NCBI GenBank assembly: GCA_026683435.1
Contig: GCA_026683435.1_4866.1
Origin: a phage
DNA length: 64,000 bases
Direction: 5' to 3' (one strand)
The translations under genes and the position numbers were made by a program. Below the pieces are notes generated by a model. It was not told the origin of the DNA, did no database searches, and saw nothing but the letters and a program-made list of their open reading frames with translations. Shown one piece after another: positions 6,550-28,022 of the stretch. Each line of letters starts with the position of its first letter. The stretch's first letter is position 1.

Positions 6550-7968
6550 TTATTGGAATCCATCCAACTCACCGTTAGTATCGCCCAGAGTAATTTTTGA
6601 AGGTTGGGCGATTTGGTCAGTCGTGAGAATAATCGGTCTAATCTTAACGCTAGCCATGCCTGTTACCGCGACGGAATATGCACGTTCATCATTGTCCGTC
6701 GTGGCAAGCAGAGGACGTGGATTCGCTGCAGCGGAGGTTTCCGTAATAGGCACCACACGAAGCGATTCGTTTTGGTCGATGTCTGTCAGAGTAACCACGG
6801 ACGGTGCCCATGTCAGTTCTGCACCTTCGTCAATCAACGGCACAGGTTCATTGGCAACATCAAACATCTCCAGGATTGGCCAAAAGCCAGAAGAGGTGTG
6901 GATGTATGTGTATGAACGATAGCTCCCACTGATAGACTGGTAATACGCTTGGTCGGCACCGAACTGGTGTCGTAACCACACGTAATCCAGGAAGTTAGCA
7001 TCAGTCGTGCTAAGAGTTCCCCATTCCCCATATACGTTCACCGACCCCAATTTGCTGGTCAGTGACAGGATAGAGGTGATTGACGGCGGTTTACTCCAAT
7101 CAGGCGCGGCGGCGTTCTCGGTGTAATACGGGATAGACATTCTGAAATAATGCGTTCCTTCATCATCCCGTTTTACCATGTATTTCAACTGTTCAACATC
7201 GACAGGTGTGTAAGTCGACTTCGGGCGAGGTCCTGCGTCTCCGGAATCAAATATTGCACCCTTGTTGTACAGGTCTGCCCAGGTAACGTTGCAAATCGCA
7301 CGGGTCGGAACAAACACTACCGCCCCATTCAGAAAGAATTTGAGCCACTTGATAGCGTAGCGGTTAGGCCAGTTGGTGCCGTTATAGAGGGCATACACCA
7401 TTTCATCAGATGTGAATAACTCTTCCGCGCTTACCAACCCAAAGAATCCGTATAACTCATTACCGGCCATTAATCCTTTTGGCCCAGGACCCGATTTCGG
7501 ATACATCGCAATCGGTTCGTAAACATAGGTCATCTTGCATGACCCGGTATAACACAAGGAGTTAGCGTGCGCCGTCAGAGTTACAGTTTCCGGCGTAGCG
7601 TATTTCATTAATGCAACGTTTGGACTGGTGATGTCACTCGCGGTTAAGTTCAACCCGTTCAATTCATTGAACGCCGGTAACGCTTCCGCATGGGTTTGTG
7701 CGCTACGTGGAATACTCACCATATTCGGGCCAGACTTGAACAGACTGGCCAGATTCAACCGGTCGTAATATACCGTTATTTCCCCAGCAAATCCTTTACC
7801 GGGTTTTCCTACCAACGTAATCTGTGTGTTTCGTCCGTTAACGTTTTTCGCAACAGGAACACCCCTGACCCCAATGGAGTCAGCGGTGATTTTTCCTGCT
7901 AAACCGGGATTGTCACGCACAATTTGTTGGCAGAGCAGTTCCATTGAAGGTTCTGTATACAACCCCAT
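6550..7968 (-). CDS. array paralog A-type (N-module + core domain), 472 aa
   Basis: N-module MGLYTEPSMELLCQQIVRDNP...GRNTQITLVGKPGKGFAGEITVYYDRLNLASLF; core GPGPKGLMAGNELYGFFG; C-terminal NGELDGFQ shared with 9925..11337. Confidence 0.6.
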   Translation of the reverse strand: MGLYTEPSMELLCQQIVRDNPGLAGKITADSIGVRGVPVAKNVNGRNTQITLVGKPGKGFAGEITVYYDRLNLASLFKSGPNMVSIPRSAQTHAEALPAFNELNGLNLTASDITSPNVALMKYATPETVTLTAHANSLCYTGSCKMTYVYEPIAMYPKSGPGPKGLMAGNELYGFFGLVSAEELFTSDEMVYALYNGTNWPNRYAIKWLKFFLNGAVVFVPTRAICNVTWADLYNKGAIFDSGDAGPRPKSTYTPVDVEQLKYMVKRDDEGTHYFRMSIPYYTENAAAPDWSKPPSITSILSLTSKLGSVNVYGEWGTLSTTDANFLDYVWLRHQFGADQAYYQSISGSYRSYTYIHTSSGFWPILEMFDVANEPVPLIDEGAELTWAPSVVTLTDIDQNESLRVVPITETSAAANPRPLLATTDNDERAYSVAVTGMASVKIRPIILTTDQIAQPSKITLGDTNGELDGFQ

Positions 7969-7981
7969 GGTATTTACTCCA

Positions 7982-8905
7982 TTACGGTAAGACTAATTCA
8001 AAAGCAAAGAACATCGTGGCCGAGTTCCCGACACCTGAGGTGTTACTAATCCCCATAGGCGCATAACCGTACGCATAAGCGAAAATGTTGTTGCTCCATA
8101 AAGGAGCTAATGCAGCAGCACCTGTTTCGTTAGGCTGGTAAGTTGAACCTTGCGCCGGTATTGAATCGATGGCACCAAGACCAATAGGCGGGAACTGTGA
8201 ACCGACAGGATACAAACGGCCCATTGTGTTTCGCCATTCACCGTTGTTGTAATCCTGTCCTGAGAGTGCCGCGTCGTACGGGACTGCGTAAGGTAACCGG
8301 ATACGGTACGTACGACCATCCTTCGTGACCTTACAATCTTGTTTGGTCGCCGTGGCCCCCAGCGGAACAATACTTCCGTCATCATCGGTCCCGTACATCA
8401 TGCCGTACTGATACGCCATTTGTACCGAGTTGCTTTTCGAATGCATCGTCGCTGGGAAGAAGACAATTCGCCCACGGAAAATAAACTTGTGCCATTCCTG
8501 AGGGTCGTAAGTAAACATGTTTCCCTGCTGCGCGGTTAACATGAGTTTTAACTCGGCAGTATTAAAGAACTCGGTATTAGATACCGTACCGAAATAGCCT
8601 GACGCCCAATCGCCACGCAAAATAGTTTGTGGCCCCGGTCCAGTGTCCGGATAGAACCCTTGCGTAATCGGATTGCCGATAAGTCGTTCATTATCTTTCA
8701 CAGCAGCTACCCAGTAACGATAAGTTGTATTCTTCGTCAGGGTATCGATATTATCTACGAACTCTACCGCGCTACCGGATAAGGTGGCGTGGGGTGTACC
8801 TGGGTTGTAAACGTCGATTGTTGCGTTCCATCCTTCCTTGCGGTAGATTTCAATCGCGGTAAGACCTTTGCTGGCTTGGGACGGCCAGCTTAACCGTATA
8901 GTCAT
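7982..8905 (-). CDS. array paralog B'-type
   Basis: 307 aa; IEIYRKEGWNATIDVYNPGTP...TYRYWVAAVKD...GPGPQTILRGDWASGYFGTV; C-terminal FELVLP. Confidence 0.6.
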   Translation of the reverse strand: MTIRLSWPSQASKGLTAIEIYRKEGWNATIDVYNPGTPHATLSGSAVEFVDNIDTLTKNTTYRYWVAAVKDNERLIGNPITQGFYPDTGPGPQTILRGDWASGYFGTVSNTEFFNTAELKLMLTAQQGNMFTYDPQEWHKFIFRGRIVFFPATMHSKSNSVQMAYQYGMMYGTDDDGSIVPLGATATKQDCKVTKDGRTYRIRLPYAVPYDAALSGQDYNNGEWRNTMGRLYPVGSQFPPIGLGAIDSIPAQGSTYQPNETGAAALAPLWSNNIFAYAYGYAPMGISNTSGVGNSATMFFAFELVLP

Positions 8906-8914
8906 GACTGCCCC

Positions 8915-9913
8915 TTACTCGACCAGTTCAAAGATAGGGTAGTAGCGCCCTTTCGTGGTGGGTGATAAATAGTTTATACGCTGAATCGTGGATACGGGTG
9001 TTCCACCGGCATTGTTAAAAATACCACGATGGAGCACACGGTCTTCCGCGGTATCGTGTTCCATACAGAGAACACCACCGCCGAAATACTGTGCCAAGGT
9101 TCCCAAAGTACCCTGTCCCAGATAAGTATAACCGATTGTTGCCCAGTTAGCCCAACGCTGTTTCTTCGGCACCTCGTTAACCATCGTGTAAAGTAAATCG
9201 TTATACTCACACGGGTTGGTTAGAGAAGCGATTTCATCATGGGTTTTCCCATTATAGTCAGCTACGAAAGGATACGCAGGAGGCTCGCTAGACGTCGTCA
9301 GGCCGCGAGGAAGACGCATAATGTACGTATCCCCTTTGTGGACTATCTTAGCGTCTTGTGGAGTGGCCGGTAGCGTTCCATGGCCGTTCTCTGGGCCAGC
9401 ATCGCCCGTACCATAGACTAAACCAGCTTGATAGAGGGAAGCCCAGTCCACAGGCGTATTCGGGAACTGCGACGTGTTAGATAGCATGTAATAGATCTTC
9501 CCGTTTCGGGTAAATTTATACAACGCCACACGATCGGTTAGTAGGTTAGGGAACATCGCCAAAAATGCAGGTGGCATTTGCGACGGAAGCCACTGTTCGT
9601 CGTAAGGAACCGCACCCATAAACCCTAAACGGTCGTCACCGTTTAGAATAGTCATTGGGCCTATCCCGCGTTTTACCTCAACAGTATATTTCTGGCTAGA
9701 CGATGCCACTGTTTTACCGTTGGCGGTTACCGTCAGAAGGTAATAATAGGTTGCGCCTGGTGTGGCGGTGGTATCACGCCATTCTGTCTCGCCATTTGAG
9801 AGCGTTGCAATCGGTTCAGGCAAAGCGCCTGGTGTGATATCTTTAACATCACGGTAGATTTTTACTACCGTAGGGATTACGTTTGGATTTTTCCAACGCA
9901 AAGTAAAAGACAT
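8915..9913 (-). CDS. array paralog B-type
   Basis: 332 aa; MSFTLRWKNPN...VKIYRD...TYYYLLTVT; LYQAGLVYGTGDAGPENGHG; C-terminal PIFELVE. Confidence 0.6.
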   Translation of the reverse strand: MSFTLRWKNPNVIPTVVKIYRDVKDITPGALPEPIATLSNGETEWRDTTATPGATYYYLLTVTANGKTVASSSQKYTVEVKRGIGPMTILNGDDRLGFMGAVPYDEQWLPSQMPPAFLAMFPNLLTDRVALYKFTRNGKIYYMLSNTSQFPNTPVDWASLYQAGLVYGTGDAGPENGHGTLPATPQDAKIVHKGDTYIMRLPRGLTTSSEPPAYPFVADYNGKTHDEIASLTNPCEYNDLLYTMVNEVPKKQRWANWATIGYTYLGQGTLGTLAQYFGGGVLCMEHDTAEDRVLHRGIFNNAGGTPVSTIQRINYLSPTTKGRYYPIFELVE

Positions 9914-9924
9914 GGATGATACCT

Positions 9925-11337
9925 CTACTTAAAGCCGTCCAGTTCACCGTTAAGAGACGTTAACGTTGTCTTGTCGGGGGGAGTATACATTTCAGCGGTA
10001 GCCGCAATAGGTTGGAAGTCGACTGTCTTCGGCAGCATTAATGCAGGCGGATGCAGTGCGAAACTGTTTTCTGAAGTAACAACTACCGGTTCGAAATCGG
10101 TAGTATCTGGATTACCGAGCACCAACGGCTTGAGACTAAACGTGTTTTCTGCGGACACGCTGCACGGTTGGAGGCTGTAATCTACCGCGCCGTGGATATC
10201 TTCTAAGCCCAAGGTAACCGTGGACTTATCCACCAACTCTAGCACCGGGAACCAGTAGTAGTTGCCTGCGCTCGATGATTTTTCTAAGTTTGTCCAACTG
10301 GCTCCAGACAACGTCGCCATGCGATGATAGGCGACGTTGGTCTTCAGTGTATCTTTCAATAAACAGAACAGCGTCCAGTAACTGTTAATCGGTTTGTCCC
10401 ACGTTCCATTATACAGAAAGTTGAACATCTCAAACTCACTACCTGCTAACTCAGCGGCAGTTGGGGTGCCGCTGACGTATGGGTCTTTCCCGGCACTAGG
10501 TAGACGAACACGGAAGTAAAACCTTTTGTTGTCTGCGCCTGTAAAGCTAATGATGCGTCCCTGGTTAACGGGCGTCGCCGCAGGGTATTTACCATTATCA
10601 TCTGTTCCGTAAACGAGTCCGTTTGTATATAATGTATTCCAGGAGATGGAGCTAGCGACAGGACTGATCGGGAGGTAAATAACCCTACCCTGGTAAAAGA
10701 ACTTGTACCAACCTTCGGCACCAGAATGTACCGGTGGTAACGCACCGGCCGATATAGTGGCATTAAGAAGTTGAGAGTGTGTAAACAACTCTGCAATTGT
10801 GGTTGTTCCGAAATAACCCGCAATAGTGTTACCTTGCAGCAACGTTTTAGGGCCAGGTCCAGAATCGGGGTAAATTGCACCGCTCGGGACGGTATAACGT
10901 ATCGTTAAGCTGCCTGTAAACGCAGGGCAATTACCTGAGATATTTAATTTCAGCGTCTGCGGCGAAGCGCTCGGTTTAGGTAGACTTGCGTCAGGTAACT
11001 GCAAATCAGAAGCAACTAATGTAAGCCCCAATGCGTCGTTTATTGCAGGTAGCGCGTCTCGTACCGTTAAGACTGTATCTTTGATAGCCACAGTCGGCAC
11101 AAAATTAAATAAAGTGGCCAGGTTAATCCGGTCGTAGTACACGGTAACATTACCTTGTACACCTGTCCCTGGATACCCGGTGAAAACAGCTTTGGTGTTA
11201 CGTTGGTTTAACGTAACTGAAGTTGGGCCGCTGGTTAAAGCAGCGATAGCCGGCGTCAGCTTAACAACTAAATCAGGGTTATCCCGATTGACTTGGTCGT
11301 ATACAAGCAGTGCCGACTCCTTCGAGTAAAATAGCAT
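9925..11337 (-). CDS. array paralog A-type, 470 aa
   Basis: ATG at 11337; N-module ...NQRNTKAVFTGYPGTGVQGNVTVYYDRINLATLF; core DSGPGPKTLLQGNTIAGYFG, LYTNGLVYGTDDNG; C-terminal NGELDGFK. Confidence 0.6.
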   Translation of the reverse strand: MLFYSKESALLVYDQVNRDNPDLVVKLTPAIAALTSGPTSVTLNQRNTKAVFTGYPGTGVQGNVTVYYDRINLATLFNFVPTVAIKDTVLTVRDALPAINDALGLTLVASDLQLPDASLPKPSASPQTLKLNISGNCPAFTGSLTIRYTVPSGAIYPDSGPGPKTLLQGNTIAGYFGTTTIAELFTHSQLLNATISAGALPPVHSGAEGWYKFFYQGRVIYLPISPVASSISWNTLYTNGLVYGTDDNGKYPAATPVNQGRIISFTGADNKRFYFRVRLPSAGKDPYVSGTPTAAELAGSEFEMFNFLYNGTWDKPINSYWTLFCLLKDTLKTNVAYHRMATLSGASWTNLEKSSSAGNYYWFPVLELVDKSTVTLGLEDIHGAVDYSLQPCSVSAENTFSLKPLVLGNPDTTDFEPVVVTSENSFALHPPALMLPKTVDFQPIAATAEMYTPPDKTTLTSLNGELDGFK

Positions 11338-11352
11338 AGGGACTCCGCATCG

Positions 11353-11382
11353 CCAAAAGAGGGGGGGCTCCGAAGAGCCCCT
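11353..11382 (-). terminator. hairpin terminator after gene 11387..12214
   Basis: ggggctc-cgaa-gagcccc, G7 run in 5' arm; T-rich on minus strand. Confidence 0.55.
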
Positions 11383-11386
11383 ACAC

Positions 11387-12214
11387 TTAGCTGTTATAGT
11401 GGTAGTACGCCACGCCTTTCACGCCTTCCTCATCGATACCCGTTTGGACAACCACGCGGTCGTACGATTTGTTAGCGAACTGAGCGGTGGATGTCGGCAC
11501 ATCCTGAACGGTGTTACTGTTCAGTGGCCCCGCGTAGTTCGGAATACCCAGGTCATCCAACACCTTACGCAAACCAGCCCACTGCGGTAGGCCAGAAGCA
11601 TCTACTGTCAGTAGGTTTTTATACGCGGTAAAGTCAATACCGTACGTCAACAAATCAATACACTTCTTACCGAGAGACGGTGAAATAGGCTCTTGAATCG
11701 CATTCAAGACATCCGATTTCACCGAAGTGTCTAGTACCGGTAAACCACGGTTATAACGCAACGTCGCAGAACCGATATAAGCCGGAGATGTCGATAGCGC
11801 TACGATGTTCTGTGTATTGGTGTAATTTGGGGTATTGGGACCCGCCAGTGGGAGGTTATAGATATCGATTGCAGAGAAGTTTACTCCGTAAGTATCCAAG
11901 AGCACCGAAAAGGCTGAGTGGAGGTTGGGAGCGTCAAACGTGACGAACTGCGCCTGGACAGAAGGACCCCACGGCAATAACCGCGCTAAGTTCACACGGT
12001 CGTAGTAAACGGTGATTGCGTCTCGAAATCCAGAACCCTGAATACCGCGCAAGCGTGCCGACGTATTGCGGTTGTTGGAAGCTGCATTAACGGGAACCTG
12101 TGTCACTTTCTCCACGTAGCAGTTTGCCGGCGACGCTTTAATAGGTAGGTTTGGGTTATCCCGGTTAATGAGGTCAAAGACCAACTCGTTTGACGGCTTA
12201 GCATAGTTGATCAT
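11387..12214 (-). CDS. N-module paralog, 275 aa, C-terminal YYHYNS (C-type end motif)
   Basis: Track start 12217 is TTG; ATG at 12214, 4 nt after upstream stop. MINYAKPSNELVFDLINRDNP...NNRNTSARLRGIQGSGFRDAITVYYDRVNLARLL. Confidence 0.6.
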   Translation of the reverse strand: MINYAKPSNELVFDLINRDNPNLPIKASPANCYVEKVTQVPVNAASNNRNTSARLRGIQGSGFRDAITVYYDRVNLARLLPWGPSVQAQFVTFDAPNLHSAFSVLLDTYGVNFSAIDIYNLPLAGPNTPNYTNTQNIVALSTSPAYIGSATLRYNRGLPVLDTSVKSDVLNAIQEPISPSLGKKCIDLLTYGIDFTAYKNLLTVDASGLPQWAGLRKVLDDLGIPNYAGPLNSNTVQDVPTSTAQFANKSYDRVVVQTGIDEEGVKGVAYYHYNS

Positions 12215-12217
12215 CAA

Positions 12218-13105
12218 TTATACCTCGCTTGGATCGTCCAGATCGTTGAACTGGAGATACAACGTTCCGACGATGGTGGTACAGGTAACAGGCAGTTTCA
12301 ACACCAGCGCATACTTGTACTTCGCGTTTGTCGGCATTGCAACAGGGTCATTCAGACCAACGCTGATAACCTCCGCGCCCGCCAAACCGTAGGAAGCGGA
12401 AGTGGTCGCTACCCATGCAGTACCCGTGATATCTTTCAGCAGGTTAACCATATCCGTCAACGGCTGTCCAGACAGAATACCCGGCTTGTATGCCAGCAGA
12501 GCATCTCGGTACTTAGTGAAGTTGTACGGGTAGGAATAGACCTCTGCAATGACCGCAGTAACATTTTCGGAACCCATCTGACCGTTCGGGTATTTCAGAC
12601 CGGTCAGGACGTTAGTAGTGACCGCAGAGACTAACGACTCATCGCCTTTCACGACTTTAAATGTCGCCTGTCCAACCCAACCGATAGACTCTGGATGTGC
12701 AACAACACGCACAGTACCTTCGGTCTTATCACCGTTCCATTCGATATCTGCGTCCTGCAGGTCAGCTTCTTCCAGAACAAAACCGTAACGTTGGTTCAGT
12801 CCAGGAATGGCCGCATACAAGGTTTCGTTGGATGGGCCGATCGCCAACGTGTCACCAATCAACACTAACAAGTCTTCGACTTTCATGCGGTTGTAGAAGA
12901 CATTTTTCTTACCCGACCAGGTAGAGCCCGTTACCCCATCTGCCGTAATTTTAATTTGCGTGTTACGGTTAGTCAGCGTTTCCTTTTCCGTACCACGGAT
13001 GTCCTTTGGCGTGGACCAGATGATGTCAGTCATCTTAACAGCAAGCGAGTTCTGTGCGTTCACTGCTGCCAACAGGACGTCTTTAGAAGGTTGATAAATA
13101 GCCAT
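12218..13105 (-). CDS. N-module paralog C-type, 295 aa
   Basis: MAIYQPSKD...TNRNTQIKITADGVTGSTWSGKKNVFYNRMKVEDLL...RYGFVLEEADL; C-terminal LYLQFNDLDDPSEV. Confidence 0.6.
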   Translation of the reverse strand: MAIYQPSKDVLLAAVNAQNSLAVKMTDIIWSTPKDIRGTEKETLTNRNTQIKITADGVTGSTWSGKKNVFYNRMKVEDLLVLIGDTLAIGPSNETLYAAIPGLNQRYGFVLEEADLQDADIEWNGDKTEGTVRVVAHPESIGWVGQATFKVVKGDESLVSAVTTNVLTGLKYPNGQMGSENVTAVIAEVYSYPYNFTKYRDALLAYKPGILSGQPLTDMVNLLKDITGTAWVATTSASYGLAGAEVISVGLNDPVAMPTNAKYKYALVLKLPVTCTTIVGTLYLQFNDLDDPSEV

Positions 13106-13115
13106 TCGCTAATTC

Positions 13116-13955
13116 CTAGTTGTTGTAGTGCAACATACACTCGCCGATTACTTTCGGGTCGTTCTGAATGCCGGTAATCAGCAATACGTTATCGTACGCT
13201 TTATTGGCGGTCGCCAACTCACTCGTTTTGTAGCGGGTAATTGTGCAGTTCGTCGGATCAAACGACGGTACCCCACGTGCGACCAATGTGGCCATCAGAT
13301 TGGACGTGTAACCCAAATCAAAGTTACTTCCTACGTCCATTCGCCCGTTCTTAAACGAGGCCATAACCTGCACTTCATCGGTAAAGTCTTCCCCGTACGT
13401 CAAGAAGCCCATGTATTTCTTACCAGTGCTTGCTGCTGCAGGGTGGTTCAAAGCCAACAAGATGTCGTTTACCACGAGGTCTTCGAGGCTATTCTTACCC
13501 CGGATAGACATAAAGGTGATGCTGCCAGTGTATTGGATACAGCTAGCGTTAATACGCATCGTGTTGTTTACGTTCAGATAAACGTATTGTTCTGGGATAT
13601 CATCTGCAACCAGGTTTAATCCATAACGACCGTTCAGGTTCTGCGCAAACGCAGTACGTTTCGACTCCACGTTCAACCAACCGTAGGCATTCGGTGCAGT
13701 TACCTGAGGTGTCATGTTCTTAAATAAGTCGTTCAGCGACAAGCGCTTATAACGGAACGTTTGAGGACCGATATAACCACGACCTTGACGACCACGAATG
13801 ATAATCTCGGTGTTGGCACCGCTTGCTGTCGGTGTGATTGCTTTCGGCGTACCGATGATAGCATTGTCTAAACCCATCGGTAGAACAGCATCCGGGTTTT
13901 CGGCATTAATCGCATCGTACAGATATTGTCGCTGAGACAGACTATATAAAGCCAT
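13116..13955 (-). CDS. N-module paralog C-type, 279 aa
   Basis: Track start 13973 is TTG; ATG at 13955 with GAGGAGG 4 nt upstream (MALYSLSQRQ...). Module ...GRQGRGYIGPQTFRYKRLSLNDLF...RYGLNLVADDI; C-terminal MLHYNN. Confidence 0.65.
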   Translation of the reverse strand: MALYSLSQRQYLYDAINAENPDAVLPMGLDNAIIGTPKAITPTASGANTEIIIRGRQGRGYIGPQTFRYKRLSLNDLFKNMTPQVTAPNAYGWLNVESKRTAFAQNLNGRYGLNLVADDIPEQYVYLNVNNTMRINASCIQYTGSITFMSIRGKNSLEDLVVNDILLALNHPAAASTGKKYMGFLTYGEDFTDEVQVMASFKNGRMDVGSNFDLGYTSNLMATLVARGVPSFDPTNCTITRYKTSELATANKAYDNVLLITGIQNDPKVIGECMLHYNN

Positions 13956-13970
13956 AATAGCCTCCTCGGC

Positions 13971-14012
13971 CAAAAAAGAAAGGAGTAGCCAGGAGGAGGA
14001 TTTCCTCCTCCC
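13971..14012 (-). terminator. hairpin terminator after gene 14025..14936
   Basis: ggaggagg-attt-cctcctcc; minus-strand T-run (plus caaaaaagaaagg). Confidence 0.6.
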
Positions 14013-14024
14013 AGCGAGGCCTAA

Positions 14025-14936
14025 TTAGGCATTAAAGTGCAGGTACATGATACCCTGGAAGTTGGTGCACAGAGTGTCATCCAGCTGCAGCAGCAGAACC
14101 TGGTTGTAAGCAGTGTTTGCACCTTCAACCGGTTTCTTAGGTTCGTCGCCTGAAGCAGTGCCATCGTCAGTAGTAGAACCAACGTACAACACGTTAGCGC
14201 CTTTCAGGTTATAATCCGCAGGCTTATCAGATGCAACCCACAGTTCCGGCACAACTTTATTCAGCTCAACCGGGAATGCAGAGTCGCCAGCGATAACACC
14301 TTTCGCCTGTACTTTCAGGAATGCTGCGATTGCTGTGCAGTCTACACCGTAAGAGTAGATGTAACCCTGACCCTTCGCAGCGCTTGGACCATCTGGGTAA
14401 ACCAGGCCGTCGAGCTTGGTTTGTGTTACCACCAGACTCAGACGTTCACCAACCTGAGGCTTAGCACCGATTTTAACCGGGATGCTGCCCAGATAAGCGT
14501 AGCAGTCTTCTTTGAAAGTAATGACGTGGTCAACCGGTGCTGGGTCCGGATCGTTCGGGTTAGTCAGCGGCGGGTTGGTATTTTCCGGAATAGCCGCCGG
14601 AACGATATCGTCTTCGGTCAGCTTCAATCCGTATTGGGTGTTCAGGGTCGTCAGCAGGTCGGTGGTGGTTTTCGGCAGTTTAACGTCGAGGTATGCGGTT
14701 ACATTACGGAACAGCGCACTGCCTTCCAGGCGATTATAAGTCACGTCCTGAGTACCGATGTACCCGGAGTTCTTTTTCGCAGTCAGGGTCATGCTGGTAT
14801 TGCGATCGGCACCTTCATCGCTAATAGGGGTCGGTGTGCCGAGCGTTATTTTAGAAAGTTCCAGTTCTGCGTCTGGGTTTTTCTCATTAATAAAATCCAG
14901 AACCAGCTTATCGGACGTTTTGTTTAAAGGTTTCAT
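14025..14936 (-). CDS. N-module paralog C-type, 303 aa
   Basis: MKPLNKTSDKLVLDFINEKNP...ADRNTSMTLTAKKNSGYIGTQDVTYNRLEGSALF...QYGLKLTEDDIV; C-terminal MYLHFNA. Confidence 0.6.
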   Translation of the reverse strand: MKPLNKTSDKLVLDFINEKNPDAELELSKITLGTPTPISDEGADRNTSMTLTAKKNSGYIGTQDVTYNRLEGSALFRNVTAYLDVKLPKTTTDLLTTLNTQYGLKLTEDDIVPAAIPENTNPPLTNPNDPDPAPVDHVITFKEDCYAYLGSIPVKIGAKPQVGERLSLVVTQTKLDGLVYPDGPSAAKGQGYIYSYGVDCTAIAAFLKVQAKGVIAGDSAFPVELNKVVPELWVASDKPADYNLKGANVLYVGSTTDDGTASGDEPKKPVEGANTAYNQVLLLQLDDTLCTNFQGIMYLHFNA

Positions 14937-14957
14937 TCTTACTTCCTTTACTCAGGA

Positions 14958-15803
14958 TTAATCAGGGTCGTTGTAATGCAAATACAAACGCCCGCCAAAA
15001 TTCAGACAGTACAACGACAGCTCCACAATCAGCACGTTGTCGACTGCTGGGTTGGTTGGTAATTCCGCTTTGTTACGCCCGTTATAGACGACGACGGCTT
15101 CACGAAGGTTAAAGTCGATAGGGTTGCGGTACGTTGTCCAGTTATCACCGGTGACCGTTTTGAGAATCTGTGCCAGACGTTCTGTGGTTATCGCAGCACC
15201 TAGTCGTTGAAATTCCTCCGCGAAATTATCAAAGCGCCAGGGATACGAATAAACTGCACCTTGACCGACCTTGATGTTAAAATACGGATACTCGTAAGGC
15301 ATCACTGTTAACGGTTCGAAGTTTGCAGGAAGCAACGCATCGCCTGGTAACAGCTGTACCTGTTGTTGCCCTATCCAACCTAAAGAAGTGGGCGTGGCAA
15401 TCAGATCCACACGCCATGTCTTCCTGTCGATTTCGGTATTCACCACATCTGCAGGTTTAAGGCTGAGACCGTAATACTGGTTAATTAACCCGACCACGTC
15501 ATGCATCTGGTAAACAGCATCGAGACGTGCAGGAACACGTAGAGGTTGAATCCCGTCCGGATCGGTAAACATGTCTGCGAAGTCAACACGATCGTAGTAC
15601 ACGGTAGTGGCACCGATAGCATTAGCCGTGGCCAATGCCTGAATGCGCACCATCGCGTTGTGACCGTTAGCTTTTGCCAGGTCTTCGTCAGACGTCGGAA
15701 TCGCAGGGACACCAAAAACAACATCTTCGACTTTTAAATCGAGATTGTTTTCGACGTTAACTTCCGCGATAATAATCTTTTCAGCTGTGGCTAAAAGTGG
15801 CAT
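14958..15803 (-). CDS. N-module paralog C-type, 281 aa
   Basis: ...TTVYYDRVDFADMF...YYGLSLKPADVV; C-terminal LYLHYNDPD. Confidence 0.6.
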   Translation of the reverse strand: MPLLATAEKIIIAEVNVENNLDLKVEDVVFGVPAIPTSDEDLAKANGHNAMVRIQALATANAIGATTVYYDRVDFADMFTDPDGIQPLRVPARLDAVYQMHDVVGLINQYYGLSLKPADVVNTEIDRKTWRVDLIATPTSLGWIGQQQVQLLPGDALLPANFEPLTVMPYEYPYFNIKVGQGAVYSYPWRFDNFAEEFQRLGAAITTERLAQILKTVTGDNWTTYRNPIDFNLREAVVVYNGRNKAELPTNPAVDNVLIVELSLYCLNFGGRLYLHYNDPD

Positions 15804-15813
15804 GTCAAAATCC

Positions 15814-16656
15814 TTATATCGGGAGATAATGAAGGATGAGATTACCGGCGTAGTTGCTGTCCGCAGCTAGCTTGATAATCGCCACACGCTGATAATCGGG
15901 GTTGTAACTATCGTTCGGTGTGACTGAAGTTATCCCCATAAATCGTGCACCTTGGAGTGCAATTTGTTCAGGTTGCGCATTCGCCCCCGTCACATATGCA
16001 AACTTTAATGGCACCACTTCATTCAACAACTCAACATCCGCTGCAGTGATTGCACGGTTGTAAACCCAATCGGTGGTGAACTGTTTTTGCAGTTCAGTCC
16101 AATCGTAACCATACGCCACATACTCAGCCTGCGGTTTACTAGCAACCACGAACGGCGCGATAATTGCGCTGAGGTCAACATCCGTCACCACATCCGCCAA
16201 GTTCGGGAAGAACTTCGCAAAGCGTAAACGGAAACCACCTTGCCAGGCCAAGCAACCGGGCTTAATAGTCACATCGATTAACCAGCTTTCTCCCAAATCT
16301 TTTACTGACTGGTCAACGATATCGTCGGCAACTAAAGACAAGCCGTATTTCGCATTCAGAAACGGCAACAACTCAGAGAGTTTATTTACCGGGTCGGCAA
16401 CGACTACCGGTATTACGTTCCTGAACAGAATTTCCATTTCGATACGGTCGTATTCGAGCGTAACGTTGCCTTTGTAGCCCTTGCCGTTCAACCCGTATAA
16501 GAGCACACGCGTATTCCGGTCAGCGCCAGGCGTTTGGACAGACTCAGGGAAGCCAGTTGCAACCTGCTCCCATGTGAGTGGATTGGCCGTTAATCCGTTC
16601 TGTCGGTTAATAGCATCTAACAACATCTCTTTCGAGGGCTTATCGTAAATAGACAC
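15814..16656 (-). CDS. N-module paralog C-type, 280 aa
   Basis: MSIYDKPSKEMLLDAINRQNG...ADRNTRVLLYGLNGKGYKGNVTLEYDRIEMEILF...KYGLSLVADDIV; C-terminal LILHYLPI. Confidence 0.6.
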   Translation of the reverse strand: MSIYDKPSKEMLLDAINRQNGLTANPLTWEQVATGFPESVQTPGADRNTRVLLYGLNGKGYKGNVTLEYDRIEMEILFRNVIPVVVADPVNKLSELLPFLNAKYGLSLVADDIVDQSVKDLGESWLIDVTIKPGCLAWQGGFRLRFAKFFPNLADVVTDVDLSAIIAPFVVASKPQAEYVAYGYDWTELQKQFTTDWVYNRAITAADVELLNEVVPLKFAYVTGANAQPEQIALQGARFMGITSVTPNDSYNPDYQRVAIIKLAADSNYAGNLILHYLPI

Positions 16657-16666
16657 CTATACCCTC

Positions 16667-17464
16667 CTAGTTGTTAAAGTGTAGGTTGAGGCTGCCCTGG
16701 AAGTTCGTACATTTATCGGTCAGTTGCACTGACACGACTTTCGCGAACGCCGTATTTGCTCCCGGCAAGTCTGCAGGTACGCCGTCGAATACGACAGTGG
16801 CACCACGCAGGTTATACGGGGATGGGGTATCTTCAGCTACCCAAATCTCAGGAACACATTTGTTGAGTTCGATTGCCAACGCCGTGTCATCTACCTCGAT
16901 ACCGACCGCTAAGAGGCTCAGGAAACGAGAGATGTGGCTACAATCGATGTCACGCGAATAGATATACGCCTGACCCAACTGGATGTCCTGGTGATCCGGG
17001 TACAGAAGACCGCTCAACTCTGTATTGGTTACTACTTCTGCCAGAGGTGTAGCAGGTTTCAGCTCGATGACCGCTTGACTTCGCCACTCGTGGGAAGTTT
17101 CAACAGCAACGACTGTGTGCGTCTGTCCATCAATGGGGTTATCTTCGATATCCTCAGGTAAGATAGACAGATTAAAACGCTCGTTAATCGCCGCGAGTAA
17201 GTCGTGCGTGGTTTGCACGTCCTCGTCTCCAAAGGCAACATCGCCTGTAAGGTAGTCCTCTAATGGGCGACGATGGTAGTCCACAATCACTTGCGTACCT
17301 TCATCACCGCGCATCTTCGAGGTAAGGACTACCTCCGAATCACGACCGTCTACTGACACAACCTCCGGCAGTCCGATATCAACATCGTCAAAGGTAAGCG
17401 GTGGGCTTATCTTATTCTCTTCGTTGATGAGTTTTAGCAGATTCTGTTTTGAAGTAAAAGACAT
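16667..17464 (-). CDS. N-module paralog C-type (first gene of array), 265 aa
   Basis: MSFTSKQNLLKLINEENK...; C-terminal SLNLHFNN; divergent N-module. Confidence 0.55.
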   Translation of the reverse strand: MSFTSKQNLLKLINEENKISPPLTFDDVDIGLPEVVSVDGRDSEVVLTSKMRGDEGTQVIVDYHRRPLEDYLTGDVAFGDEDVQTTHDLLAAINERFNLSILPEDIEDNPIDGQTHTVVAVETSHEWRSQAVIELKPATPLAEVVTNTELSGLLYPDHQDIQLGQAYIYSRDIDCSHISRFLSLLAVGIEVDDTALAIELNKCVPEIWVAEDTPSPYNLRGATVVFDGVPADLPGANTAFAKVVSVQLTDKCTNFQGSLNLHFNN

Positions 17465-22992: not shown

Positions 22993-23031
22993 AAATAAAG
23001 GTTAGGTGGTACCTCGTAGAGGTACCACCTA
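22991..23031 (-). terminator. hairpin terminator after gene 23037..25196
   Basis: aggtggtacctc-gta-gaggtaccacct (12-bp stem) followed on minus strand by a T-rich run. Confidence 0.7.
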
Positions 23032-23036
23032 GACAC

Positions 23037-25196
23037 TTACTGATATATTTTGATTTGTGGGTAACTATAGCTATAGCTATCGCTATCAACATCCTGACCG
23101 ACAAACAAAATGCCTGTGTTAGAAAACGCCGCGCTGCAATACAATGTTAGCCCGGCGGGGTTAGAAATCGTATTACCGTAGTAGGCGCTGTAGCGCATGT
23201 ACTTACCGTCATTCTTCACAAACAGGCTGCCTAACGATCCAACCATTCCGAAGATCAAACAAGCACCATCGGGAGAAACACAGACATTGCCGTTCGGATA
23301 TCGAGTGGATGTTACACTATAATCAATTTCCGTGTAATCCAACTCACGTGTCGCCACCCAACCATCGGCGCGTTTTTCGAAGATGTTGTATTTGTGGGTT
23401 TCAAGGACGGATACCAGTATGACTGAAAAGTTCGAAGATGCTGCCACCTTCAACGTCGAGGCTTCTGCTAACCCTGGGATGTCTAGCTTAGCGGTTTCAA
23501 CATAGAGTCCTTCTGAACCTTTAGTTACGATATGAACAGATTTTCCATTGTGCTCTGAAAAAGCAACGCTGGTGCCATCGGCGGTCATCGCAATACTGTC
23601 GTACGAACCACACAGAGCACCAGAATCGTCGAAGTCAAACGTGAGCGTTTCGTAATTTGAAAACCCATCACTTTTTTGGTAAACAGCTATTTCGCGCGTA
23701 CCATTCCCAACGAACAGTGTCTCTCCGTCCGGGGTGAGTTTGACCAACTTACCGTTTACACCGGTGGCCGGGAGATTGGTAATTGCTGTTGGCGTCACTT
23801 TGCCCCACGGCATGTCGGCACTGTTGTCGTAAACCAGCACTGCGCCCTTCGTTGTTTCCCCAGTTATCGCGGAAGGAATCCCGACGACGAACAAATCGCC
23901 TGACTTGTTTATCGATACCGGACAACGCCCATCGGTTTCCGCATTTTCACCAGTATCAAAAGTTAGATCCATCAGAATGCTGGCATCGTGTCTATAGCCT
24001 GGGAAATCTTTTCTATATATAGAAATTGTAGTTGAACGCTTTGCAAGTGGAGTGGTAATCAGTACATTTGCATCGCTACTACAATCCAATTCTGCACCCA
24101 ACGAATAATTATTTTCCGAAGACACGTTCAACGACTGGAATTCATTCGATGGGTATACGTTTCGGCTTATCTTTATCCGATAAGGATCGGACCACTGTCC
24201 GACGGTGTCCTCACCACGATATCTGACGCGTAGCCAATAACTACTACCGTATTGAAGCACGTTATCCGGCAGAGTTATCGTTGTAAGGTTTCGCATATCG
24301 AACAATGAAGAGAATGGTAGGTTGCTACTAGGACTAAAATCTAACGTATCGCCATAGTTATAATAGAGTTTCCAATCTGTAGCAATATGCGTTTCCGTGC
24401 CTGAAGTTTCAAACGTCGATGTTTCTATCGTTAAACCTGACGGTCCGTTCACATCGGTTGGGGTTGGCGACACTATCGTCGGTTTTTGGATTGTGGTCTC
24501 TATTACCGAAAACATGGTTACTGACCAGTCACTATTAACCGTATCTGAGTGAAATTTAGCACGGGCGTAATACGTCTTGTTTCCTACCAGTGTGCCGGGT
24601 GGTAAAGTTAGAAATTTTTTAGCATCCTGAGATTCGAGCAATTGGTAAACCGTAGTGGAAAAATCTTCATTTTCAGACACTTCCCAACTCGTCGCTCTAT
24701 GAGGTGTTGTTTGAAACGGCCTTGCAGTGAAGCCATTGAGGATAAAATCCAGATCACTAGCTGAACTAGAACCGTAGTACGGGGAAATCCATGTAGGCGC
24801 GTCCACTACATTAGAGACCACCTCAATTTCATAGGTTTTGGTGATGCCGTTAGCAGAAACGGTCAGCGTAATAATTTGTCCTAACTGCCGAGGATCTTCG
24901 ATAAACAACGTATAGTTTAAACCTCCATAATGCCTGATTATTGCTTCAGGGCACGTTACCTGATAAACCGACGGTTCTTCATTACCGGCAATGTAAAAAA
25001 ACGTTTCCCTGCCTAGAATGCATTTTTTTTCATCTCCGTCGGAAAAGATTACAGTGAATGATGACTCTGCAGAAGCATCTGACAACGGTATCTTGTATTC
25101 GATTCCATCCTTACTAAATAAAACAACCCCACCCGTTTTATCCCCAGTAAATTCAGGCAGTTCGTGTAAACGTTTCTTTTTGACTACAGTTGCCAT
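23037..25196 (-). CDS. large structural-type protein (719 aa) with beta-sandwich-like and beta-propeller-like repeats; putative fibre/adhesin
   Basis: Repeated segments ending ...W(S/E)...Y (HRATSWEVSENEDFSTTVY, SSYWLRVRYRG...WSDPYRI); C-terminal repeats TADGTSVAF / SPDGACLIF; start overlaps the upstream N-module gene. Confidence 0.55.
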   Translation of the reverse strand: MATVVKKKRLHELPEFTGDKTGGVVLFSKDGIEYKIPLSDASAESSFTVIFSDGDEKKCILGRETFFYIAGNEEPSVYQVTCPEAIIRHYGGLNYTLFIEDPRQLGQIITLTVSANGITKTYEIEVVSNVVDAPTWISPYYGSSSASDLDFILNGFTARPFQTTPHRATSWEVSENEDFSTTVYQLLESQDAKKFLTLPPGTLVGNKTYYARAKFHSDTVNSDWSVTMFSVIETTIQKPTIVSPTPTDVNGPSGLTIETSTFETSGTETHIATDWKLYYNYGDTLDFSPSSNLPFSSLFDMRNLTTITLPDNVLQYGSSYWLRVRYRGEDTVGQWSDPYRIKISRNVYPSNEFQSLNVSSENNYSLGAELDCSSDANVLITTPLAKRSTTISIYRKDFPGYRHDASILMDLTFDTGENAETDGRCPVSINKSGDLFVVGIPSAITGETTKGAVLVYDNSADMPWGKVTPTAITNLPATGVNGKLVKLTPDGETLFVGNGTREIAVYQKSDGFSNYETLTFDFDDSGALCGSYDSIAMTADGTSVAFSEHNGKSVHIVTKGSEGLYVETAKLDIPGLAEASTLKVAASSNFSVILVSVLETHKYNIFEKRADGWVATRELDYTEIDYSVTSTRYPNGNVCVSPDGACLIFGMVGSLGSLFVKNDGKYMRYSAYYGNTISNPAGLTLYCSAAFSNTGILFVGQDVDSDSYSYSYPQIKIYQ

Positions 25197-25747
25197 TATA
25201 CATCGTCTCCGTAGGTTAACACTGCATCATCACCGATGCATAAAACAGTTTCTTCATCCAGACTTGCCACAGCTTCTTTTTCATTAAACGCCGTGAATGT
25301 AAAGGTAGCCGTCCAAGCCGGTGAATCGTCACTCATCGCTGCAATCAATGGCTCGTTTGTTGGTGTAATAACCCCTGTCGAGATGTCTTCACGTGACAAG
25401 TTTAAACCGCATAACTGGTTTACAACTGTCGCTAAATCAGCATAGGTGTCGCCGGGAGCTACAGTAACCAGTATCGGTCCTTGCGGGTCGATAATCTTAT
25501 TAGCGACTAGACGGTCGTAATAGACGGTAACCTTCTTGCCGTTAGGTTTACGTGCTTTCGCAATGTACGCTTGCGAGGTACGGGCACTTTCAACACCTAA
25601 GTCGATTGGCCCTACTCCGCTTATCACAATCTCGTCAGGCGATAATGACAAGCCGTTATCGTGATTAATCAACGCCACGACAAGCGCTTTCGACGAGAGT
25701 GTTAGGTCTGGCTGATAGCGGTCTGCCATTAACGCCTCCAGAAACAA
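25196..25747 (-). CDS. stand-alone N-module protein (183 aa)
   Basis: ...KVTVYYDRLVANKII...QLCGLNLSREDIS matches both N-module blocks; followed directly (overlapping start/stop) by the 719-aa gene. Confidence 0.6.
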   Translation of the reverse strand: MFLEALMADRYQPDLTLSSKALVVALINHDNGLSLSPDEIVISGVGPIDLGVESARTSQAYIAKARKPNGKKVTVYYDRLVANKIIDPQGPILVTVAPGDTYADLATVVNQLCGLNLSREDISTGVITPTNEPLIAAMSDDSPAWTATFTFTAFNEKEAVASLDEETVLCIGDDAVLTYGDDV

Positions 25748-25784
25748 AAAAATAAGCTACCACACATATGATCGTGTGGTAGCC
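25744..25784 (-). terminator. hairpin terminator after gene 25798..26193
   Basis: gctaccacac...gtgtggtagc with T-run on minus strand. Confidence 0.6.
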
Positions 25785-25797
25785 TACTCGTACGCTG

Positions 25798-26204: not shown

Positions 26205-26588
26205 TTACGATAACTCGCCCATGTAAATTACTTCATAACCGAACCACTCACCGATTTCAATAAGGTAAGAAACTAGCAAGTGGCGATGACAGAATTTCCC
26301 CGGTGGGCAATAGCACATTAGTACGACCTCGCCCTGGCGGAGAATCTCTATCAACTTATCAGTGTCTTCATCAAACAACCGACTAAGTTTCTGCAGGTAG
26401 CGTTTGGTATACGCAGCTTCTGCGTCGGGGCCTTTGTCAGACTTCTTGTAGTCCATCAGAAAGTCCCAGTCGGGTGCCAAATATTTCAGCCCCGACTTAA
26501 CCGTTATATCCAGCTTTGGCAAATTCCGTTTTTCAGCTATCCGCCACTTCGCCAGTTGGAGCGTCCACAGCTTTACTTGCTTTGGCAT
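26205..26588 (-). CDS. DUF488-family protein
   Basis: C-terminal LMCYCPPGKFCHRHLL and central KYLAPDWDFL...YTKRYLQKL fit the DUF488 pattern. Confidence 0.5.
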   Translation of the reverse strand: MPKQVKLWTLQLAKWRIAEKRNLPKLDITVKSGLKYLAPDWDFLMDYKKSDKGPDAEAAYTKRYLQKLSRLFDEDTDKLIEILRQGEVVLMCYCPPGKFCHRHLLVSYLIEIGEWFGYEVIYMGELS

Positions 26589-27540
26589 TTTTCGCTATCT
26601 CTTTTTCTTTCTCCTGAAGCGCTTTAAAATGTGGCGCATACGCGCACCACTCTTCCGCGGTAAACGATGTGATACATAACCGGTTAGTATCTTCACTTAC
26701 CGTAAAGGTCGTGTGGTTTCTTTCCGGGTCCTTAAAGTTAGCAAAAGCCGGTACGCCCAAACCCATAGCAGAAATAGCACTACCGAGAGCAGAACACCAT
26801 ACCCGTCTGTAAGCATCGTTGATTTTAATCTCCCATCCCACAGACGGTGTAATACCAAGACTACGATAATTCTGCGACTTTGCCGACGGATGGGCATAAA
26901 CGATGAGCACGTTATTCTCACGGTCTATCGCGAATTCGTAGTTGTTGTTGTTACTGACCTGTACCAACCTACGAATATCTTCCGGCAACTCCTGCCACAT
27001 TTCCAGTTTCTCTTTATCCCACGCAGGTGTTAGAAGCGGTGGAACGCGACCGGCATGATCTTGGAAATACATCAATTCGCTATAGAGGTTCTTTAAGCGA
27101 GCGTACTCGTCTAATGTCCAATCTCCCAGCTCTAGACTATTCTCCAACGCATCTAGCTTATTCCAACCAACAACTGCATAGGCGTGGTGCTGTTTGCGCG
27201 TAATACCACACATCAGTTTAGCGAGACCGTTAACAACATTGCCCTGCTGAACCAGAGGCGACCAGCCGTTAGCATATCCAGCGGTAACGACAGGCTGGAA
27301 GTTCTCTTCCCCGAGCACCGCCCATGTAACATGTTCGGTTTGTGCATGGTGTCTATCCATCAACCGTTCAACAATGGCCACGCTACAAAGAATTTCCATG
27401 AAGTTCGCGTTACCTCCATTCCACATGGAGAAATATGCAGGACGGACATGTCGCGCTTCATTGGCCGGTGCTTTGCACAACAGCTGATACATTATCCAGG
27501 TGGAATCCAACCCTGCTGAAAACGAAACAAGCTTTGTCAT
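26533..27540 (-). CDS. PP-loop superfamily ATP pyrophosphatase-like protein
   Basis: Track start 27609 is TTG; ATG at 27540 forms an ATGA overlap with the upstream stop. N-terminus MTKLVSFSAGLDSTW resembles the SGGxDS PP-loop. Confidence 0.4.
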   Translation of the reverse strand: MTKLVSFSAGLDSTWIMYQLLCKAPANEARHVRPAYFSMWNGGNANFMEILCSVAIVERLMDRHHAQTEHVTWAVLGEENFQPVVTAGYANGWSPLVQQGNVVNGLAKLMCGITRKQHHAYAVVGWNKLDALENSLELGDWTLDEYARLKNLYSELMYFQDHAGRVPPLLTPAWDKEKLEMWQELPEDIRRLVQVSNNNNYEFAIDRENNVLIVYAHPSAKSQNYRSLGITPSVGWEIKINDAYRRVWCSALGSAISAMGLGVPAFANFKDPERNHTTFTVSEDTNRLCITSFTAEEWCAYAPHFKALQEKEKEIAKNAKASKAVDAPTGEVADS

Positions 27541-28022
27541 TGTTTCACCGTATGTAGAAATTGATAACGTGGGGTTTCTTCTGCCACAACATCGAAAGAT
27601 GGGATGCAAACAATCTTCCCATATCCATCGAGTTCTATACGTGGAGAAATCGTGATGGTGCCTGCACGCATCACTTCAATCGCTAACGCTTTGAGTGGGC
27701 CGTGTGGTGTGAATTCACCGCGGAGTTGAAAGTAACCATCGACAACGCCATAGCAGACGTTCGATACATAACCGCAAACGCGTACGAGTTCAATACAACG
27801 TATCCGATCAATGGCGGCCTTTACTTCCCCGAACGATTGACACGGTTTAATCACAGGCGCGTCGAATTCACAGAAAACGTGTCCGCGACGTAATGCTAAC
27901 GATATCGTTTCGTCGGGACGGGCCGAGTCTTTAAATTCGTCGCACGGTATAGACAGTATCAGTCCACTCGCGGATGCCACGGTTTGTGCGGGTATTTCCT
28001 TAACCTCGGTTTGTAGTTTCAT
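27537..28022 (-). CDS. Cys-rich hypothetical protein (161 aa)
   Basis: ORF track; translationally coupled to the PP-loop gene. Confidence 0.55.
   Translation of the reverse strand: MKLQTEVKEIPAQTVASASGLILSIPCDEFKDSARPDETISLALRRGHVFCEFDAPVIKPCQSFGEVKAAIDRIRCIELVRVCGYVSNVCYGVVDGYFQLRGEFTPHGPLKALAIEVMRAGTITISPRIELDGYGKIVCIPSFDVVAEETPRYQFLHTVKQ

Follow-up and report, generated by a model that had tools for sequence, protein, structure and literature searches.

In phiKZ, the fibre paralogs share N-terminal anchoring regions, and the seven-bladed propeller of gp131 is positioned for the first contact with the cell (PMC13250141). In SPN3US, whose receptor is the flagella (PMC11428620), gp123 and gp124 are found among the virion proteins and are not flagged as 'Head' (PMC5694885 Suppl. 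Table 1). Gp123 gave 55 peptide-spectrum matches (PSMs) in wild-type particles and 0 in tailless particles, and gp124 gave 530 and about 20, respectively (PMC10052503 Table S2). These mass-spectrometric counts assign both proteins to the tail. Here we describe a gene that occupies the slot of these two genes in a stretch of phage DNA of 64,000 nucleotides (nt), contig GCA_026683435.1_4866.1 of GenBank assembly GCA_026683435.1, which we call the window. The gene is an open reading frame (ORF) of 719 amino acids (aa) at 23037..25196 on the minus strand, as are all features of the locus given below. Its product is probably a tail-attached receptor-binding fibre, possibly an accessory one, with a beta-propeller as the binding tip.

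The window belongs to an SPN3US-like jumbo phage (Seoulvirus), and its flanks are 96-98% identical at the nucleotide level to SPN3US, SPFM phages and others. In blastn, the SPN3US, SPFM4 and phage 1252 loci match the window up to 23000 and again from 25159, 13 codons into the ORF. The segment between these sharp boundaries, 23001..25158, is therefore a replaced cassette relative to SPN3US. The equivalent slot of SPN3US holds gp123 (156 aa) and gp124 (1005 aa) within 3489 bp, and according to the annotations the same pair is present in SPFM4, phage 1252 and Erwinia phage Asesino. Gp123 is annotated as 'tail fiber protein' (PHROG 9017) and gp124 as 'tail protein' (PHROG 2871). No part of the 64-kb window matches SPN3US gp124, and of gp123 only the first 40 residues find a match, with 65% identity. 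The 719-aa gene lies directly after gp122, as gp123 and gp124 do, and it has the same 1-nt start/stop overlap. However, its product shows no similarity to gp123 beyond aa ~42, and a single Ig/FN3/propeller protein replaces two proteins. The neighbours are nearly unchanged from SPN3US: 175 of 177 residues are identical in gp122 and 104 of 110 in gp125. The GC content of the cassette is 0.449, compared with 0.483 for the window. This value ranks among the lowest 3% when windows of equal size are compared, as would fit an import from another source. The hairpin stem of the SPN3US terminator is unlike that of the window, but the T-tract behind it is the same. Since the stems differ while the T-tract is common to both cassettes, the 3' junction of the swap is placed at the T-tract.

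The ORF starts with ATG, and its coordinates include the stop codon. It is coupled to an upstream ORF at 25196..25747, whose likely true start is the ATG at 25729. This start gives a gene of 177 aa (25196..25729), the same length as SPN3US gp122, and the product matches PF25613 (DUF7941; 65.6 bits) and phrog_2935. The A at 25196 is shared by the TAA stop of this gp122-like gene and the ATG of the 719-aa ORF (..GTA TAATG GCA..), which makes the gp122-like gene the translationally coupled partner of the putative fibre gene. An intrinsic terminator hairpin with a 13-bp stem and a T-run (23003..23031) begins 6 nt past the stop codon of the 719-aa ORF. It folds with an energy of -24.3 kcal/mol (z = -5.8), and all 200 shuffled sequences folded less well. 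A second terminator-like hairpin, with a 17-bp stem and a T-run, lies 5' of the gp122-like gene at 25750..25789. The 1-nt overlap and the hairpins at both ends indicate that the two genes form a unit bracketed by terminators. An initial annotation of the window, made from the letters alone, had reported the ORF, the overlap of its start with an N-module gene at 25196..25747 and the terminator immediately downstream, and our analysis agrees with all three. An exhaustive HMMER search with the 719-aa protein found 361 relatives, which mostly match aa ~130-340. Full-length homologues with 38-39% identity occur in another jumbo-phage lineage (P0002, 710 aa, 39%; sequence L012), and given these homologues the ORF can be regarded as a real gene. 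A word-seeded protein search returned only its own 98%-identical cluster, and the profile-seeded version added a few FG-GAP_2 proteins.

The N-terminal 42 residues (MATVVKKKRLHELPEFTGDKTGGVVLFSKDGIEYKIPLSDAS; 25071..25196) form an anchor that is 65% identical to SPN3US gp123 aa 1-40, and the first 13 aa are identical in the two proteins. In a six-protein alignment the anchor has ten invariant columns, including K7, R9, H11, E12, L13, L26, S28, E33 and Y34. The 719-aa protein contains the pattern M-A-x-x-V-x-K-K-R-x-H-E-L ... L-x-S-K-D-x-x-E-Y-K and scores 83 bits with a hidden Markov model (HMM) of these 42 residues. We searched eight sequences with this HMM: the window, SPN3US, Asesino, L005, L010, L012, L013 and L015. 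It hit exactly 16 ORFs, with four kinds of body behind the anchor. The anchor-bearing proteins are the 719-aa protein, SPN3US gp123, Asesino gp140, 170-aa gp123-like proteins, and proteins of 207, 710 and 1306-1519 aa; the long protein of L005 carries the Pfam domains Phage_fiber_2 and Collar. In 8 of 8 sequences the anchored gene or gene group directly follows a gp122-like gene, and two loci have two such pairs. Furthermore, the homologue with 38-39% identity belongs to a cluster of tail-fibre genes: its neighbours are a gene for a long fibre, one for a Caudo_TAP assembly protein and a DUF4376 / phrog_10508 gene ('tail fiber protein').

It was also observed that, in three related jumbo-phage contigs of 200-225 kb (L012 1191..10703, L015 2733..10716 and L010 7472..16027), one or two gp122-like genes are accompanied by two or three fibre genes with the anchor, whose products differ widely in size (170, 207, 710 and 1437-1519 aa). 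These loci indicate multi-fibre sets that would be built on one attachment motif.

The match of PF25613 to the gp122-like protein (cut-off 27) covers only the N-terminal half of the family (profile positions 3-162 of 276). The gp122-like proteins score 195-307 bits among themselves, while the DUF7941 array paralogs of the window score 17-38 bits against them. By these scores the gp122-like proteins are a subfamily distinct from the array paralogs and specifically linked to anchor-bearing fibre genes. The paralogs in question, of 276-472 aa, form a tandem array at 6550..17464 on the minus strand and correspond to SPN3US paralog family B. Members of this family are present in tailless particles, and they are therefore head proteins, possibly ejection proteins (PMC5694885). 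The initial annotation had described the 719-aa protein as a candidate adhesin or fibre lying far from the main array. Its candidate fibre or adhesin is supported by the fold, by the tail anchor shared with gp123 and by the long fibres with the same anchor, one of which has Phage_fiber_2 and Collar domains. Its place relative to a fibre array is not, because the array paralogs are assigned to the head by proteomics, so that the fibre cannot be an outlying member of such an array. We also considered the DUF7941 array and the 719-aa gene as one fibre system and rejected this, since the array proteins are in the head and the gp122-like subfamily is distinct from them. Gp122 itself was added only tentatively to paralog family B and was undetected in the 2017 proteomics (PMC5694885). 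In 2023, 22 PSMs were recorded for gp122 in the wild type and 0 in heads, and it was labelled 'Non-virion' (PMC10052503 Table S2). We infer that these PSM counts are more easily explained by a low-copy adaptor associated with the tail, or by an assembly factor, than by a head protein. The gp122-like C-termini (25196..25260 in the window) share a conserved acidic motif, ..VLCIGDDAVLTYGDD / ..VLMIGDDGVLTIEGDDD / ..LIVTADNRVLTFGGQ, which lies beyond the DUF7941 N-half and is seen in the window, SPN3US, Asesino and a metagenomic lineage. The motif is a candidate contact site for the anchor.

The body of the 719-aa protein is predicted to consist of beta-sandwich domains followed by a beta-propeller. 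A small Ig-like beta-sandwich domain, D1 (aa ~46-127; 24816..25061), is all-beta in the AlphaFold2 (AF2) model, with block averages of the predicted local distance difference test score (pLDDT) of 62-86, and it aligns with the equivalent domains of P0002, P0132 and P0090. Within the cluster of near-identical proteins D1 is a hot-spot of substitutions: of 35 variable sites in all, 8 lie in the 35 residues of aa 55-89 (24930..25034), compared with about 15 in the 360 residues of the propeller. Two tandem FN3/Ig-like domains follow at aa 130-232 and 235-345 (24162..24809), as supported by phmmer, Foldseek and self-alignment. They are 27% identical to each other (E 0.002), and in Foldseek they match the FN3 arrays of titin and NCAM. 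Hundreds of proteins that match aa ~130-340 carry up to 17 PF25788 Ig_Rha78A_N repeats; the 719-aa protein scores 12.1 bits with PF25788 itself (cut-off 27.4), and phmmer links aa 130-340 to PF25788-bearing proteins with E down to 1e-68.

The remainder of the protein, aa ~350-719 (23040..24149), is a predicted seven-bladed beta-propeller of a divergent FG-GAP/integrin-alpha type. Seven blade motifs (CSSDANVLITT, INKSGDLFVVG, LTPDGETLFVG, MTADGTSVAFS, AASSNFSVILVS, VSPDGACLIFG and AAFSNTGILFVG) start at aa 372, 429, 487, 537, 585, 640 and 689, with a spacing of 48-58 residues, and in the AF2 model they fold into the seven blades. The best-matching folds are ligand-binding scaffolds (G-beta/WD40 and integrin alpha) and point to no specific enzyme family. 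Thus, the repeated beta-sandwich-like segments and the C-terminal propeller-like repeats that the initial annotation had read from the sequence are both recovered, the former as two homologous domains and the latter as seven motif copies. The structure prediction that it had proposed as a check gave Ig/FN3 domains and a seven-bladed propeller rather than a fold of a specific enzyme family. A C-terminal profile built from the 719-aa protein, P0001 and P0002 aligns with FG-GAP_2 propellers in hhalign with 97.4% probability (E 1.3e-11, 324 columns), and phmmer with the C-terminal domain alone matches P0125, P0143 and P0132. The Pfam model PF14312 (FG-GAP_2) did not list the 719-aa protein even at E <= 1, and a PDB sequence search with the propeller alone gave nothing meaningful. 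A profile that includes the FG-GAP_2 relatives matches integrin alpha propellers in the PDB.

How does this architecture compare with propellers that are already known? Proteins P0132, P0090 and P0125 of uncultivated phages have a fibre N-terminus, then FN3-like domains and then an FG-GAP_2 (PF14312) / integrin-alpha propeller. The 719-aa protein has the same architecture with seven blades, although its FG and GAP consensus residues are largely degenerate and the identity is ~20-23%. More remote relatives combine PTR (phage tail repeat) or FN3 with FG-GAP_2 in phage-like contigs, one of which also has an endolysin gene and a PAAR gene. Our literature search for FG-GAP phage fibres found nothing on the topic. 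PhiKZ gp131 and its paralogs gp132-135 (PDB 4GBF) follow the same design logic, with a shared N-terminal anchor and a C-terminal seven-bladed propeller. However, gp131 has a large N-terminal domain, whereas the 719-aa protein has an anchor of ~42 aa and FN3 spacers, and the gp131-like proteins of SPN3US are a separate family (paralog family C, gp168-170). We considered gp131 as a homologue and rejected it, because the likeness is in fold and design only and no sequence similarity was found to any PDB chain including gp131C. The likeness is thus an analogy and not family membership. Gp45 of Staphylococcus phage phi11 is described as a receptor-binding protein that uses a beta-propeller (PMC4901313). 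The 719-aa protein resembles it as a propeller-bearing phage protein. Gp45 reportedly is a trimeric siphophage baseplate protein with a five-bladed propeller platform that binds N-acetylglucosamine (GlcNAc) on teichoic acid, and it is not known to be related to the 719-aa protein in sequence or context.

As a separate observation, one metagenomic sequence (L018 1..9670) contains four tandem paralogs of 739+, 820, 813 and 889 aa, each with a phage tail repeat and an FG-GAP_2 propeller. These four genes in a row would encode the propeller-tipped fibres of an uncultivated phage.

We propose the following for the 719-aa protein as a receptor-binding fibre. The first ~42 residues would act as a conserved plug for attachment to the tail or baseplate, together with, or helped by, the gp122-like protein, its translationally coupled partner and putative adaptor or chaperone. 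The Ig-like domain and the two FN3-like domains would serve as a short spacer, and the C-terminal seven-bladed FG-GAP-type propeller would be the distal module that binds a structure on the host surface. The gene was gained by cassette exchange, through recombination in the anchor-coding 5' end and at the T-tract of the terminator, replacing gp123 and gp124, and this swap presumably altered what the phage binds. Cassette exchange is an ordinary way for phages to change their binding target, and in this respect the kind of system is already known.

Several observations weigh against this interpretation. We infer the place of the 719-aa protein in the virion from its anchor and its genomic slot. 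Classical fibres have trimeric coiled or beta-helical features, and these are absent from the protein. In Pfam, PHROG and NCBIfam it matches no family at threshold; in PHROG 9017 / 7760 ('tail fiber protein') it has no match at E <= 0.01, and gp123 scores 208 bits. The anchor is poorly defined in the AF2 monomer, with pLDDT below 50 over aa 1-21 and averages of 56 for aa 21-30 and 55 for aa 31-40. The adaptor role of gp122 is uncertain because of its 'Non-virion' class in SPN3US. In addition, the fibre may be dispensable, since alleles with an out-of-frame poly-A tract, described below, are common in public assemblies. On balance, the overall interpretation as a fibre or adhesin is supported.

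Other roles should be weighed against a receptor-binding fibre. Propellers may be catalytic, and the protein could be a tail-attached enzyme (a lyase, lactonase, esterase or glycosidase) whose substrate is a surface polymer that it breaks down or alters. The enzyme would then assume the role of the replaced gp124, which some records call a glycosyl hydrolase; gp124-type proteins have the label 'glycosyl hydrolase' in Proteus phage 7 and MET_P1_082_240. In the same direction, the best Foldseek E-value belongs to seven-bladed propellers of YbhE/6-phosphogluconolactonase (1ri6, 6nau), the best BFVD match is a 'BNR repeat domain protein', and the phiKZ atlas states that the propeller fold of gp131 is 'frequently associated with enzymatic activity' (PMC13250141). 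However, at the profile level the protein is homologous to FG-GAP_2/integrin-type propellers, whose role is binding, and Pfam and NCBIfam show no enzyme family in the 719-aa protein. Gp124 likewise has no detectable enzyme family (it has no Pfam family, and a PDB sequence search was empty), so that its 'hydrolase' label is unverified. We consider an enzymatic role unlikely.

The Ig/FN3-rich architecture is also typical of decoration proteins, and a dispensable Hoc-like decoration or adhesin on the capsid, neck or sheath might provide weak adherence to mucus, biofilm or debris that does not determine infection. The upstream partner carries a DUF7941 N-half, and DUF7941 paralogs are head proteins in SPN3US. 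The frequency in nature of frameshift alleles that part the anchor from the body is consistent with dispensability as well. The same proteomics that speaks for the fibre is unfavourable to this alternative: gp123, with the same anchor, gives 0 PSMs in tailless heads and is thus located in the tail, and gp122 is likewise absent from heads. Moreover, the same anchor begins fibres of 1300-1500 aa, including the one of L005 with Phage_fiber_2 and Collar, and the head paralogs are clearly set apart from the gp122-like subfamily. A decoration protein therefore seems improbable to us. It is still less credible, and indeed very improbable, that the product is not in the virion at all but is secreted or cell-associated, acting for example in superinfection exclusion or in masking of the host surface. 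This would agree with the 'Non-virion' call for gp122 and with the origin of the cluster of the 719-aa protein, as 74 of 74 members come from bacterial isolate or metagenome assemblies and none from phage isolates. However, the gene shares its anchor with a proven tail protein and lies in exactly the slot of that protein, its relatives in other lineages have tail-fibre gene neighbourhoods, and no signal peptide or lipobox is evident at the N-terminus of the 719-aa protein (MATVVKKKRLHEL...). A tail-attached receptor-binding fibre is thus the role that we prefer.

The junction between anchor and body contains a homopolymer of eight adenines (A8; 25023..25030) in codons E56-K57-K58, and its length is polymorphic in public assemblies. 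The tract is A8 in the window and in L006, and A9 in L008 (1501-1529), as read directly in the DNA. The A9 allele of L008 splits the gene into an anchor ORF of 63 aa and a body ORF of 665 aa with its own ATG. From anchor-only ORFs of 60, 63 and 61 aa, which end in ..DEKNAF, ..DEKKMHSRQ and ..DEKKNAF, alleles of A7, A9 and A10 were deduced, respectively. Out-of-frame alleles occur on ~25 contigs of public assemblies. A8 is the only homopolymer of at least 8 nt in the window that lies inside an ORF of at least 150 aa. We rejected a window-wide enrichment of homopolymers, as there are 4 tracts of at least 8 nt and 4.7 are expected. Campylobacter phages have hypermutable poly-G tracts in receptor-binding genes. 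In these phages, too, a homopolymer lies in a fibre gene, and in-frame and out-of-frame length alleles are found in natural samples, whereas the tract described here consists of adenines (A8) and belongs to a jumbo phage of enterobacteria. The A8 tract may be an on/off switch that works by slippage, or its alleles may be sequencing errors. It was also noted that a second homopolymer, T7 (24995..25001, codons ~F66-F67), lies 22 nt downstream of A8. It is shortened to T6 in one sequence of the public data, P0176, a truncated ORF of 79 aa.

The exact 719-aa protein is present in NCBI as HCX4564293.1, from a contig of 239,441 bp in an E. coli assembly. Its cluster of 74 members consists largely of ~240-kb contigs in isolate assemblies of Salmonella Enteritidis, Virchow and Saintpaul. 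The cluster of the 710-aa homologue has 33 members, which come from metagenomes and from assemblies of Salmonella isolates; the contigs reach ~225-228 kb, and the carriers are a second jumbo-phage lineage. In tblastn against 50,697 deposited phage genomes the body of the protein had no match, and the search yielded just the anchor, in Erwinia phage Asesino. The cassette had no match in complete E. coli genomes. Both lineages are represented by long contigs in Salmonella and E. coli isolate assemblies, and several of these contigs approach the length of a genome, and the Salmonella serovars with these phage contigs are Enteritidis, Virchow, Saintpaul, Braenderup and Kedougou. As both lineages occur within assemblies of host isolates and neither is among the deposited phage genomes, the phages were apparently sequenced together with their hosts. 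This suggests, for example, a carrier state, pseudolysogeny or contamination.

The region upstream of the two-gene unit shows further differences from related phages. At ~27537..27576 the window lacks ~337 bp of SPN3US (L001 8384..8720), which contain a 110-aa hypothetical gene (RefSeq ACQ60_gp148), and Salmonella phage 1252 has a 1761-nt gene further along instead (L003 9306..11066). This variable spot is near an ORF of 161 aa that RefSeq calls 'head maturation protease'; the SPN3US literature names gp245 as the prohead protease. Within 26205..27609 (minus strand), a DUF488-like gene (26205..26588) overlaps a gene of 358 aa, which has a weak QueC-like match (phrog_1550, E 0.003).

The locus can be seen in a wider frame, which we offer tentatively and with considerable doubt. 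The gp122-like protein and the 42-aa anchor might act as a general socket and plug, and in this lineage the A8 tract might switch the display of the fibre on and off. Enterobacterial jumbo phages may use such a device to swap unrelated fibre bodies, and the socket may have come from a paralog family of head proteins. The bodies exchanged may include those of 156 aa and 207 aa, the 1300-1500-aa fibres with Phage_fiber_2 and Collar domains, and the 710/719-aa FN3-propeller proteins.

Receptor-binding proteins set the host range of phages and are engineered for therapy and diagnostics, and in SPN3US-like jumbo phages they are not defined. The combination of Ig/FN3 domains with an FG-GAP-type propeller is an uncharacterised fibre architecture, known here from two jumbo-phage lineages associated with Salmonella. 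Should the poly-A tract truly be a switch, fibre display would be phase-variable in a jumbo phage of enterobacteria. With its 42-aa plug, its gp122-like partner and its junction at the T-tract, the locus is a natural exchange point and a testable site for host-range swaps in these phages.

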